Part shown: positions 26,898-31,918 of the stretch, piece by piece | How positions within the stretch are numbered: the first letter of the stretch is position 1 | Layout: the number at the start of each line of letters is the position of its first letter | Assembly (NCBI GenBank): GCA_044229975.1 | Contig: JBGARZ010000004.1 | Coordinates: forward strand, 224,001 to 288,000 | Direction: 5' to 3' | Source: Polyangiales bacterium | GTDB taxonomy: Bacteria; Myxococcota_A; Polyangia; Polyangiales; Ga0077539 | Length of the DNA stretch: 64,000 nt | Position numbers and translations under genes: made by a program | Notes under the pieces: generated by a model | Told to the model about the DNA's origin: nothing | What the model saw: the letters and a program-made list of their open reading frames with translations, nothing else | Database searches by the model: none

Positions 26898-27028
26898 GCG
26901 GTGCGACCGTACACCTCGACGCGGGCGCCGGCCCCAACGCATCCGGCGAGTACGACGTGCTCCCGCTCGGCGCGACCGCGGTCCTCGAGCGGCTCACCCG
27001 CTGAGCGCGGAGGGGCGTGGGTTGGCGC

Positions 27029-27034
27029 TTGACG
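27029..27034 (+). promoter_or_regulatory. Possible -35 box (TTGACG) for the abi leader
   Basis: 5/6 match to TTGACA upstream of the structured leader; -10 box weak. Confidence 0.35.
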
Positions 27035-27059
27035 CGCCATGCTCGATGCGACACAAACC

Positions 27060-27121
27060 CATCCAACACGCCCGCCTCGCCTCTGCCGAAAGGCACGCGC
27101 ACTAGGCGGGCTTTTTCATTT
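27060..27121 (+). ncRNA. Structured leader RNA / intrinsic terminator upstream of the Abi gene (candidate RNA antitoxin)
   Basis: GCCCGCCT(27070-77)/AGGCGGGC(27104-11) stem enclosing TGCC-GAAA-GGCA, followed by TTTTTCATTT. Confidence 0.55.
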
Positions 27122-27139
27122 CTTCGGCGTGGGTCTGCG

Positions 27140-28045
27140 ATGGGGACGCGCTACGACAAACCGGCCCTGACGATCGACCAGCAGCTGGCGTTGTTGGTGT
27201 CTCGCGGCATGACGGTGGCCGACCCTCAGCGCGCTCAGCGCGTGCTCTCCAACATCAGTTACTACCGACTCAGCGGCTACTGGTATCCGCTCCGCAAGGT
27301 CGACGCCGCCGGGCAGCGAGCTGACGACTTCCGGCTGGGCAGCAGCTTCGAGTTGGCCGTCGAACTGTACGAGTTCGATCGTCAGCTTCGCCTCGAGTTG
27401 CTCGACGGAGTCGAGCGGGTGGAGGTCGCGCTCCGCACCAGCGTGACCTACCGCTTCGGGCTAGCGGCGGGAGCTTTCGGCCACACCGACCCGACGAAGT
27501 TTCGCGCCGGTTTCGAGCACGCAGACTGGCTCCGACGGGTCGAGGAGGAGATCGAGCGTTCGCAGGAGACCTTCGTCGAGCACTACCGGCGGCGATACGA
27601 CGGCCACCCCCGACTGCCGCTGTGGATGGCGACGGAGGTGATGTCCTTCGGCTCCCTCTCGCGCCTCTTCAAGAACGTCGCGGCAGACGTCCAGCGCGAG
27701 ATCGCGAAGCCCTTCGCCGTCCACCACAGCGTGCTCGCGAGCTGGCTGCACGTGATCACCGTCGTCCGCAACGTCTGCGCCCACCACGCCCGGCTCTGGA
27801 ACCGCGAACTCGGCGTCCGGCCCAAGTTGCCCCAACACGACCCGAGCTGGAGGGTTCCGGCGTCGGACCGACTCTTCGCGGTGCTGCTCATCCTGCGCCA
27901 TATGCTCCGTGCTCTGGGCGAAGGCAGCGGCTGGGCCACGAGGGTCGAGCAACTCGTGAATCCGATCGCACGGAAGGGGGCCAACGGCACCTCCATGGGT
28001 CTTCCGCCACGCTGGAACGATCACCCCATCTGGGCCGGTCGCTGA
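27140..28045 (+). CDS. Abi family protein (Abi_2, AbiD/AbiF-like HEPN RNase)
   Basis: 'KPALTIDQQL', 'ISYYRLSGY', 'LYEFDRQLR', 'VEVALRT', 'PLWMATEVMSFG', HEPN RxxxxH 'RNVCAHHARLWN'. Confidence 0.92.
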   Translation: MGTRYDKPALTIDQQLALLVSRGMTVADPQRAQRVLSNISYYRLSGYWYPLRKVDAAGQRADDFRLGSSFELAVELYEFDRQLRLELLDGVERVEVALRTSVTYRFGLAAGAFGHTDPTKFRAGFEHADWLRRVEEEIERSQETFVEHYRRRYDGHPRLPLWMATEVMSFGSLSRLFKNVAADVQREIAKPFAVHHSVLASWLHVITVVRNVCAHHARLWNRELGVRPKLPQHDPSWRVPASDRLFAVLLILRHMLRALGEGSGWATRVEQLVNPIARKGANGTSMGLPPRWNDHPIWAGR

Positions 28046-29478: not shown

Positions 29479-30048
29479 CTACGGCGTCGCGGCCGTATTC
29501 GCGAGGACGACGTCGATCACCGGAGCGTAGGCCCGCCACGCCAGGGAGAGTTCTTCGATCAGCTTGTCCCGATACTCGTCAAACGAGTCGGGAACTTCCG
29601 GCCCGGGCAGCACGTAGCCGAGAGCCGCATACCATGAGGTGGTCCGGTGGTTCCGCGCCAACCGGGCTGTCTTCATGGCATCTGAGCTACGCAGCGCCAA
29701 TCCCAGGGGATCAGCGTTTCGACAGACCACCCCGACGTAGGGAGGCTCTCCCGGGCCGAGGGTCACCGACCAGCGGTGCCATTGAAGTGCGACGCACACG
29801 CGAGGCTGCCCGGAGTCGTGGAGAGGCCACGTCGGCCGAACGAGCTGGTAGGTCGGCCACTCCTCGTCGGGGTCGATGCGAGCGTTGAGCTGGACGCCCA
29901 GCGCCTGCGTCGTCTCCGCGATCATCGGGCGTAGGCCGTCCAGCCACTCGTCGAGCGCCGCGGTCGCTTCCTTCTTCAATGCCGCCCACTCCTCGATGCG
30001 TTCCCGGTGGCGGAGGTAGAAGCGGACCCGCTCGTCATGGATGGTCAT
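29479..30048 (-). CDS. Hypothetical protein coupled to the upstream nuclease
   Basis: Protein-like ORF whose start overlaps the nuclease stop (TGATG). Confidence 0.7.
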   Translation of the reverse strand: MTIHDERVRFYLRHRERIEEWAALKKEATAALDEWLDGLRPMIAETTQALGVQLNARIDPDEEWPTYQLVRPTWPLHDSGQPRVCVALQWHRWSVTLGPGEPPYVGVVCRNADPLGLALRSSDAMKTARLARNHRTTSWYAALGYVLPGPEVPDSFDEYRDKLIEELSLAWRAYAPVIDVVLANTAATP

Positions 30049-30788
30049 CAGAACTCCCGGTCGAGGGTTCGAAGGTAGGACTCAACGACGCGCCGACCCT
30101 CCGTGATCCCGCTGCGTGGCTGGGGCGCATCGACCGCTCGCAGCGAACGAGAGAGCACGTCGTGGAGCTGTCGGTAGCTCATGGATCGGAACGCCTTCGC
30201 CGCCTCGCCGGTTGCGCTGACCGGGGGACGACCCTCGGGCGTGAGGAAGACGAAGCGGGCGCCCGGGTCTGACTTGAACGCTTCGAAGTACGCATCGCAT
30301 TGACGGTGTCCCTCCGGTGCGTCGACCTTGTTCTCGACGACGAGGGTGAGCTCGTAGCCCGCGCGCACCACCACGTCGATGCGGCAGTCCCCTCGCTGCT
30401 CTTCGCGGCGTGTCCGCGCGTGAGGCAGCGCGAGGACGAGCGCGTCTGACAAACCCTCGGGGTACGCCTCGCGGAGAAACTCGCGGAGCCCGACGGGGCC
30501 GAGGCCGTGACGACCGCAGGGATCGAGCAGCCACGCAATCATCGTCGAGTGGGGCAACTCGTCCCTGCGCAAGCCGAGGACGCCGAAGGTGTCGTCGGGG
30601 CCGTGAAGCCACTGCCCGCGGGCCCGCAGGGCATCCTCTTCGGCCGCGATGACGTTGTAGCCATGACGCCATTCCGAGAGGATGTCGGCCGAGCGCGCCT
30701 CGATGACGAGCCACTGCGCCAACAGACTCTCGAACTCCTCGTCGGAGCTTCGCAGGTGCGACGCCGTAATCCGCCCGGACGAGGACAT
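30048..30788 (-). CDS. PD-(D/E)XK nuclease family protein (PDDEXK_4-like)
   Basis: 'ELPHSTMIAWLLDP...HGLG', 'RIDV', 'VVENKV', 'RQCDAY', 'FVFLTPEG'. Confidence 0.85.
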   Translation of the reverse strand: MSSSGRITASHLRSSDEEFESLLAQWLVIEARSADILSEWRHGYNVIAAEEDALRARGQWLHGPDDTFGVLGLRRDELPHSTMIAWLLDPCGRHGLGPVGLREFLREAYPEGLSDALVLALPHARTRREEQRGDCRIDVVVRAGYELTLVVENKVDAPEGHRQCDAYFEAFKSDPGARFVFLTPEGRPPVSATGEAAKAFRSMSYRQLHDVLSRSLRAVDAPQPRSGITEGRRVVESYLRTLDREF

Positions 30789-30940
30789 CTCGATGCGGCT
30801 ATCACCGGGCAGGCTTTTGCTGCAACGGAAACGTGCGCTCCGCGGATCGGTCGCCCAGCCTCCATCGGGACACCCCATGCCGGGCGGCACCCGAGCACGC
30901 AGCGACGACAGCATCGCGACGCTCGCGGTACGGTCGCGCG

Positions 30941-31918
30941 ATGGGCTACATCCCGCCGGACGCGAAGTGGTACCTGGCCGACGTGGTGGAGGTGATACGG
31001 GTGGGCGACGACCCTCGGCAGGTGGTGCACGTCAACCTGCACCTCGTGCGCGCCGACTCCCCGAGCGAGGCGTACGAAAAGGCGCTCGCGATCGGGCGGC
31101 AGGGTGAGCAGCGCTACCTCAACCCCGCTGGACAGGAAGTGCACACGGAGTTCGTCGGGCTGCGCGGGCTCAACGTCATCCACGAGCCGTTGGAGGATGG
31201 CGCCGAGCTGATCTACGACGAGCGCATCGTGTCGTCGCGCGCCGAGGCGGAGGCGCTCACCGTGAAGCGCTCCGAGCTCGCGGTCTTCGCGCCCATCGAG
31301 CCGGGAGACCATCCCGACTACGCCTGTGCGGAAGTCCTCGCGGAGGTCTACCAGCGCGTGCAGTCGATGCGCGACGCGATGCGTCTCACCACCCCGCGGC
31401 TCGTGCTCGAACCGCTCGTCCCCGACCACGCCGACGCCCTCTTCGCGGGGCTCTCCGACCCGCTTCTCTACACGTACATCCCGGGCAACCCGCCGGTCTC
31501 GGTCGAGACGCTGCGGGCGCGATACACCCGCCTGGAGTCGCGCTGGTCGCCCGACGGTCTGGAGCGCTGGCTCAACTGGGCGGTGCGCCTGTCCGATGGT
31601 GCGTACGTCGGGCTCGCCGAGGCCACGGTGCGCGCCGATCAGCGGGCGAGCGTCGCGTACTTCGTGTTCGCGGAGTTCATGCGACGGGGCTACGGCGCCG
31701 AGGCCACGGGCGCGGTGGTGCGCTACCTCGTCGACGAGCTCAAGGTGCGCGGCGTCGAGGCACAGATCGACACCCGCAACGCGGCCTCGCAGCGTCTCGT
31801 CGAGCGCGTGGGCTTCGTCCGGGTGCGCATCGAGCGCGACGCCGACACCTTCAAGGGATCATCCAGCGACGAGTACATCTACGAGTGGCCGATGGACGCG
31901 CTCACGGCGTCGCGATGA
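30941..31918 (+). CDS. DUF4288-like domain fused to a RimJ/RimL-type GNAT acetyltransferase
   Basis: N-part 'WYLA...LVRADSPSEAYEKA...YLNPAG...EDGAEL'; C-part 'LTTPRLVLEP', 'RRGYGAEA', 'NAASQRLVERVGF'. Confidence 0.75.
   Translation: MGYIPPDAKWYLADVVEVIRVGDDPRQVVHVNLHLVRADSPSEAYEKALAIGRQGEQRYLNPAGQEVHTEFVGLRGLNVIHEPLEDGAELIYDERIVSSRAEAEALTVKRSELAVFAPIEPGDHPDYACAEVLAEVYQRVQSMRDAMRLTTPRLVLEPLVPDHADALFAGLSDPLLYTYIPGNPPVSVETLRARYTRLESRWSPDGLERWLNWAVRLSDGAYVGLAEATVRADQRASVAYFVFAEFMRRGYGAEATGAVVRYLVDELKVRGVEAQIDTRNAASQRLVERVGFVRVRIERDADTFKGSSSDEYIYEWPMDALTASR

Follow-up and report, generated by a model that had tools for sequence, protein, structure and literature searches.

The window, a 64,000-nt stretch of the genome of a Polyangiales bacterium, contains a single abiF gene preceded by a short folded leader. 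The features of this locus are as follows:

27029..27034, + strand: −35 box TTGACG of a predicted sigma-70-type promoter (from the sequence; its register is that at which TTG peaks ahead of the motif in 71 homologues)
27052..27057, + strand: predicted −10 box CACAAA behind a 17-nt spacer, without −12 T and −7 T (register as in the homologue −10 boxes)
27065..27121, + strand: predicted abiF-type antitoxin RNA of ~52-57 nt (model R1 match 27063-27119; RF03085 match 27071-27111)
27070..27111, + strand: structured core of P1, P2, CUC linker, P3 and 3' bulge (from the fold and homologue covariation)
27112..27121, + strand: T-rich run behind P1, with which it is predicted to form an intrinsic terminator, the outer stem of the motif serving as terminator stem (from the sequence)
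27140..28045, + strand: abiF gene, encoding a 301-aa Abi_2/AbiD-F HEPN protein (PF07751, PADLOC AbiD, 8VZ6_A, Foldseek)
27767..27784, + strand: HEPN catalytic motif RNVCAH (R210-H215), invariant across homologues

The gene lies between an acyltransferase-like gene in divergent orientation and an ABC1 kinase gene in convergent orientation, so that no co-oriented partner is seen for abiF. The unit includes no protein antitoxin gene, in agreement with the original prediction that abiF stands alone, and this is the only Abi_2 gene in the host genome. Further along the window, the minus strand of 29479-30914 encodes a 288-aa PD-(D/E)XK nuclease with matches to PF14281 and the PADLOC candidate PDC-S26 and then, overlapping it, a 189-aa ORF that matched nothing in Pfam, PADLOC or NCBIfam. 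The GC3 of both ORFs is low (0.81-0.82), and it is possible that this pair, 1.4 kb from abiF, is a second accessory defence pair. A single ORF at 30944-31918 (+ strand) combines an N-terminal DUF4288 with a C-terminal GNAT acetyltransferase, and could be either a fusion or a read-through of two genes.

Assignment of the protein is consistent across methods. It matches PF07751 (Abi_2) with an E value of 1.6e-59 and 201.8 bits against a cut-off of 25.6, PADLOC AbiD with an E value of 9.7e-75, and the chain 8VZ6_A collinearly over residues 5-298 with an E value of 1.2e-47; the NCBIfam models returned no family. An AlphaFold2 monomer model, built from a 56-sequence alignment, has a pLDDT of 96.5, and the sole Foldseek match of the predicted fold at E ≤ 0.001 is 8vz6_A, ‘PbAbiF dimer bound to ncRNA’ (TM 0.87, rmsd 2.7, ~28% identity in the structural alignment). 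The intact RxxxxH motif on which the original prediction had drawn is RNVCAH at residues 210-215, found in all 80 full-length homologues (one of the 81 loci was dropped as too short), and mutation of R210 and H215 is reported to inactivate PbAbiF (Saunier 2025, bioRxiv 10.1101/2025.04.15.648962; this and the other literature on known systems and promoters is cited here from partial text). The ORF is free of stops and keeps all 18 invariant alignment columns. Judged by sequence and predicted fold, the abiF product is an intact, full-length homologue of the structurally solved PbAbiF. The abiF frame of Cystobacter fuscus (L005:3001-4185) has ~395 codons and a C-terminus ~95 longer than its homologues, either a genuine extension or a frameshift.

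The leader folds into three helices, all of which had been described in the original prediction and are recovered in both the MFE and centroid structures of 27055-27125. The outer 8-bp stem P1 pairs GCCCGCCT (27070-27077) with AGGCGGGC (27104-27111), the middle 3-bp stem P2 pairs CGC with GCG (27078-80 with 27097-99), and the inner 4-bp hairpin P3 is TGCC-GAAA-GGCA at 27084-27095, leaving unpaired a CUC linker and a 4-nt 3' bulge, CACU, at 27100-03. The free energy of this fold is -26.8 kcal/mol (z -4.6), equalled by 0 of 200 shuffles, with the z-score falling to about -2 when 100-nt flanks are included. Directly behind P1 lies the T-rich run TTTTTCATTT (27112-27121), separated by 18 nt from the ATG at 27140. 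As predicted, such runs are rare: T/A runs of 5 or more number 3 in the 64-kb window and 465 in the 10-Mb genome, and at only 4 sites genome-wide does a perfect 8-bp stem lead straight into a T5 run. Of the first 9 nt past the core stem, 6 are T at this locus and 7.3 on average in homologues. A simple consensus scan called no promoter or terminator at the leader, the −10 box being weak and the terminator loop exceeding the permitted length. We infer that the 5' end of the RNA is A27065.

Comparison of upstream regions among homologues, proposed earlier as a check on the hairpin, came out in its favour. This hairpin and its T-run precede abiF in 76 of the 80 homologous loci taken from named genomes (identity 35-51%), the remaining four comprising three with almost no upstream DNA and one that is 5'-truncated. 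When the three-helix structure was imposed on 71 distinct homologue leaders, 92.9% of cells pair, compared with 31-44% in slid controls. Double-sided changes occur in 14 of the 15 pairs, a level reached by 0 of 500 shuffles and similar in a model-fitted alignment, these counts being based on a supplied structure and on related sequences whose kinship inflates them. A covariance model built on the same 71 leaders with the window left out (R1) scores the leader at 57.6 bits (E 2e-11), the next site in the window reaching 11.3, and finds no other match across the 10-Mb genome. Applied to 80 metagenome loci, mostly outside its training set although at least two are the same contigs, R1 places the motif just upstream of the gene in 76; the other four have no upstream DNA, starting within 18 nt of the match, so that the hairpin is conserved in 76/76 loci with flank. 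Among 80 more distant viral homologue loci, an upstream motif was found in only 26.

With the Rfam abiF model (RF03085), which the original prediction had suggested searching with, the leader falls short of the formal threshold. In a 100-nt search the leader aligns over all 37 model positions, but with a score of 19.2 bits (E 0.18) it is below the gathering cut-off of 37. An Rfam scan of 5 kb around the locus gave no abiF match at E ≤ 10 and three chance matches, and an RF03085 search of the whole host genome found nothing. The cut-off is passed by 9 of the 20 homologue loci scanned, and it is only through these homologous leaders that the present one is tied to the family. The inserted inner hairpin, predicted in 65 of the 78 motifs of the clade, is probably the reason for the low score. 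On these sequence comparisons the leader is a divergent abiF RNA motif.

Conservation extends to bases outside the helices. The 5' A is kept in 79 of 80 rows (99%), the CUC at 86-89% and the CA of the bulge at 85-88%, all of them retained in the window, which is more than a plain terminator would need. Pair 15 is U-A in the window and A-U in most homologues; all three stems are kept in the leader, with what appears to be a compensatory change. On a protein tree built from 72 sequences after removal of 5 near-duplicates, the middle-stem variant changes 16 times; shuffling gives a mean of 37.8 and never fewer than 28. In these sequences the RNA variants thus track the protein tree, which shows co-inheritance of RNA and gene, not co-evolution. 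Multiple motifs were seen at a few loci. Three tandem promoter-hairpin-T-run cassettes, ~99 nt apart, precede one abiF gene in L036:1-340; they carry different motif variants and are apparently a small array of non-identical antitoxin RNAs, each with its own promoter. Second motif copies are present upstream of the first at L002:2710-2781 and L236:1276-1328, and downstream of the gene at L201:1746-1809.

The gene has a patchy distribution. It was found in 1 of the 60 relatives searched with this query, comprising none of the 8 genomes of the same genus and 1 of the 30 of the same family. Its GC3 is 0.86, versus 0.94-0.96 for three housekeeping-type neighbours; a genome-wide GC3 percentile was dropped, its ORF set being contaminated by shadow frames. 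No empty insertion site was found, and three genomes of the same genus (G002, G003 and G004) carry the two flanking genes on different contigs, placing the module at a synteny break. In the abiF tree its neighbours are the same-family homologue L083 (support 0.77) and gammaproteobacterial copies (0.82). The rarity in relatives, lower GC3, synteny break and tree position together fit horizontal gain. As to the host lineage, the clusters closest in sequence to the ABC1 neighbour come mostly from Myxococcota, which makes a host of that phylum likely; PolA is a poor discriminator, with 48% identity to two myxobacterial genomes, 44% to two other genomes and 43% to a gammaproteobacterium.

The locus is therefore an abiF (AbiD/F, Abi_2) gene with a conserved abiF leader motif that very probably works as a type III toxin-antitoxin module, as the original prediction had proposed. 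The present analysis establishes the protein family, the intact catalytic motif and an RNA structure that is conserved, covaries and is linked to the gene. Transcription, termination, binding and toxicity at this locus would be expected by analogy with published homologues, for which toxicity, premature termination at the leader, RNA-protein binding, rescue in trans and loss of toxicity in R/H mutants (Saunier 2025), as well as an AbiF dimer structure in which two RNAs block the active site (Zilberzwige-Tal 2025, via PMC12737573 and PMC13064643), are reported. By this analogy, transcription from the single predicted promoter would start at about 27065 and in most cases end at the T-run that follows the outer stem, so that a ~55-nt folded RNA would be made in excess, while rare read-through would supply the toxin mRNA. 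Binding of the AbiF dimer by the unpaired, conserved bases of the RNA would obstruct the HEPN RNase site; if the RNA were lost, as might follow from phage interference with host transcription, the RNase would be released and growth would stop. The module probably helps its host to resist phages. In related systems the upstream stretch is reported to be required for anti-phage activity (Grafakou 2024, PMC11381338). Phage defence and its trigger in this host are the least certain part of the proposal, and anti-phage activity is reported to be hard to show for the C. difficile AbiF protein (Saunier 2025).

Of the promoter, the original prediction named only the −35 box, TTGACG, which is present at 27029-27034; the −10 box found at the homologous register, CACAAA, has neither the −12 T nor the −7 T that is usual there. 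Of 71 homologue promoters, 67 have A(−11) and T(−7) when four registers are allowed; the −7 T is absent from L083 too, and is retained by four other myxobacterial copies (L005 of Cystobacter fuscus, L009, L011 and L034). CACAAA is not an obvious assembly error, since its letters are kept in low-depth contigs of sequencing runs X1, X2 and X3, which come from two studies, one possibly the source of the assembly. The X2 and X3 contigs, both from one study, differ from the window nearby only at 27023 and 27059, the −35 box, −10 box and covered part of the RNA being the same.

Host tRNA promoters provide a reference for this −10 box. Upstream regions of 62 lead tRNA genes of the host genome (G000) included 23 with TTGAC, for which the −10 hexamer was chosen in a manner favouring T1 and A2 but not position 6. 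Their pattern is TTGACA/G, 16-19 nt, TA(G/C)Ann; a −7 T is present in only 3 of the 23, or 5 if counted generously, and CACAAG and CAGAAG are among the −10 boxes. With generous counting the −7 T is found in 5/13 promoters of the same-family genome G012, 0/9 of Cystobacter fuscus and 5/7 (3-5/7) of a gammaproteobacterial control, small numbers since 30 of each comparison genome's 51-62 tRNA loci were taken (G012 and G061 loci L134-L193). A genome-wide ratio of TTGACR-N16-18-TANNNT to TANNNV was rejected as a test of −7 T loss, because the host (32%) equals two gammaproteobacterial controls (31% and 35%) and the ratio is dominated by noise; an intergenic version (42/125) is weak in the same way. 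In addition to one long TRCF-sized frame, the host has two stand-alone CarD-family frames. The M. xanthus rrnA promoter is reported to lack the −7 T and to be activated by CarD (Henry 2020, PMC7703639), and a −7T-less promoter pattern has been described for the Alphaproteobacteria (Myers 2021, PMC8407463). Taken together, these patterns suggest that −7T-less promoters, possibly assisted by CarD/CdnL, are common in myxobacteria, where the literature searched reports them only for M. xanthus rrnA. As host tRNA promoters are mostly without the −7 T, the abiF promoter is plausible for this host, non-consensus but host-like.

A more specific reading is that the locus belongs to a minimal AbiF antitoxin subfamily, often missed by Rfam, that has one motif, carries an additional inner hairpin and uses the antitoxin fold as its terminator, the promoter here having shifted to the −7T-less, CarD/CdnL-assisted type of the host. 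We regard this as unlikely, and the four myxobacterial copies that keep the −7 T count against any need for such adaptation. If it were true, antitoxin supply, and hence toxin release, would be wired to CdnL activity, so that AbiF would respond to stress or infection through a trigger absent from the literature searched.

The same −10 box could instead have decayed, leaving a silenced or nearly silent passenger that makes too little RNA or toxin. The missing −12 T and −7 T, set against A(−11) and T(−7) in 67 of the 71 homologues, the −7 T of the four myxobacterial copies and the failure to find the gene in all 8 same-genus genomes and in all but one of 30 same-family genomes are in keeping with this. 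The scarcity of the −7 T in host tRNA promoters, two of them resembling CACAAA, its absence from L083, an ORF without stops and with its 18 invariant columns, and three intact RNA stems with an apparent compensatory change argue the other way, and make decay very improbable.

We attach a similarly small probability to a leader whose action is confined to cis: it would terminate transcription or gate translation, holding toxin synthesis down until a phage protein or stress lifts the block in the manner of AbiD1 and Orf1, and would not bind the RNase. The outer stem of the motif itself precedes the T-run, translation of AbiD1 is reported to be activated by cold and by binding of phage Orf1 to a structured leader (Bidnenko 2009, PMC2661086), and in C. 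difficile termination alone is reported to be enough to counter toxicity in cis (Saunier 2025). Against this stand the 85-99% conservation of the hairpin's unpaired bases and the direct RNA-protein binding and rescue in trans published for two homologous systems; moreover, the roles of attenuator and antitoxin are not mutually exclusive. Finally, a chance GC-rich terminator unrelated to protein function, to which the 71% G+C of the genome and the z-score of about -2 with flanks might point, is effectively refuted by the single R1 match in 10 Mb, the motif upstream of every metagenome homologue with flank and the absence of a co-oriented upstream gene in need of terminating.

With the locus read as a type III toxin-antitoxin module, this copy adds little surprise to an already characterized system and is of modest use in two respects. 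With the Rfam abiF model the cut-off is passed at only 9 of the 20 homologue loci scanned and the present leader is missed, whereas the inner-hairpin model finds all 76 further close loci with flank. A wider abiF model would provide natural RNA-protein variant pairs with which antitoxin specificity could be tested as a step towards Cas13 guide RNAs, and the abiF promoter may exemplify a mobile defence gene running on a host-type −10 box.

Among known systems, the closest in structure is PbAbiF-AbiFr of a Prevotellaceae bacterium (PDB 8VZ6), which has a full-length homologous protein with the catalytic R210 and H215 at the same numbers, and likewise a stand-alone gene with a short cis-encoded structured RNA upstream. 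The proteins differ in being only ~28% identical in the structural alignment; a search of the collected loci for a close PbAbiF relative, on which C32 and U38 could be mapped, matched only three distant viral loci. AbiF(Cd)-RCd22 of C. difficile prophage phi027 is reported to share an Abi_2 toxin with RNxCAH and the order of promoter, abiF-motif RNA, terminator and toxin gene. RCd22 is described as having two abiF motifs and a separate terminator in 98-132 nt within a prophage lysis module, whereas the locus here has one ~55-nt motif with an extra inner hairpin and apparently its own terminator, between ordinary chromosomal genes. The RF03085 frame, CCCGCC..GCCUCU..GC.CA..GGCGGG, aligns over all 37 positions, but in place of the 11-nt loop of the model the window has a 16-nt region with a 4-bp GAAA hairpin. 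No description of this inner-hairpin variant was found in the literature texts searched, although the key paper and several supplements were outside the search and may describe it; abiF is not named in the main text of Weinberg 2017.

The lactococcal proteins AbiD, AbiD1 and AbiF belong to the same Pfam family and match the same PADLOC AbiD model, and an upstream promoter-terminator stretch is reported to be needed for anti-phage activity in this group (PMC11381338). Anti-phage activity has been demonstrated there, whereas the present locus is known from its sequence, in a myxobacterial host. ToxIN, AbiQ, CptIN and TenpIN share the promoter-RNA-terminator-toxin layout, but their toxins are reported to fold differently, their antitoxins to be pseudoknotted and their loci to contain tandem repeat arrays (Saunier 2025). 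Membership of these families was rejected on the basis of a single unrepeated motif, Abi_2 as the sole Pfam family and no ToxN-family toxin. AbiD/F and RF03085 have been linked to Cas13 (PMC12165695); the locus was likewise rejected as a Cas13 or AbiF-Cas13 intermediate, having 301 aa, one RxxxxH, collinearity with 8VZ6_A over 5-298 and a single RNA motif. By every feature examined in its sequence except the RF03085 threshold and the uncertain −10 box, the locus is an AbiF type III toxin-antitoxin, and as the AbiF system has been published as such (Saunier 2025; Zilberzwige-Tal 2025), it adds a member to a characterized system.
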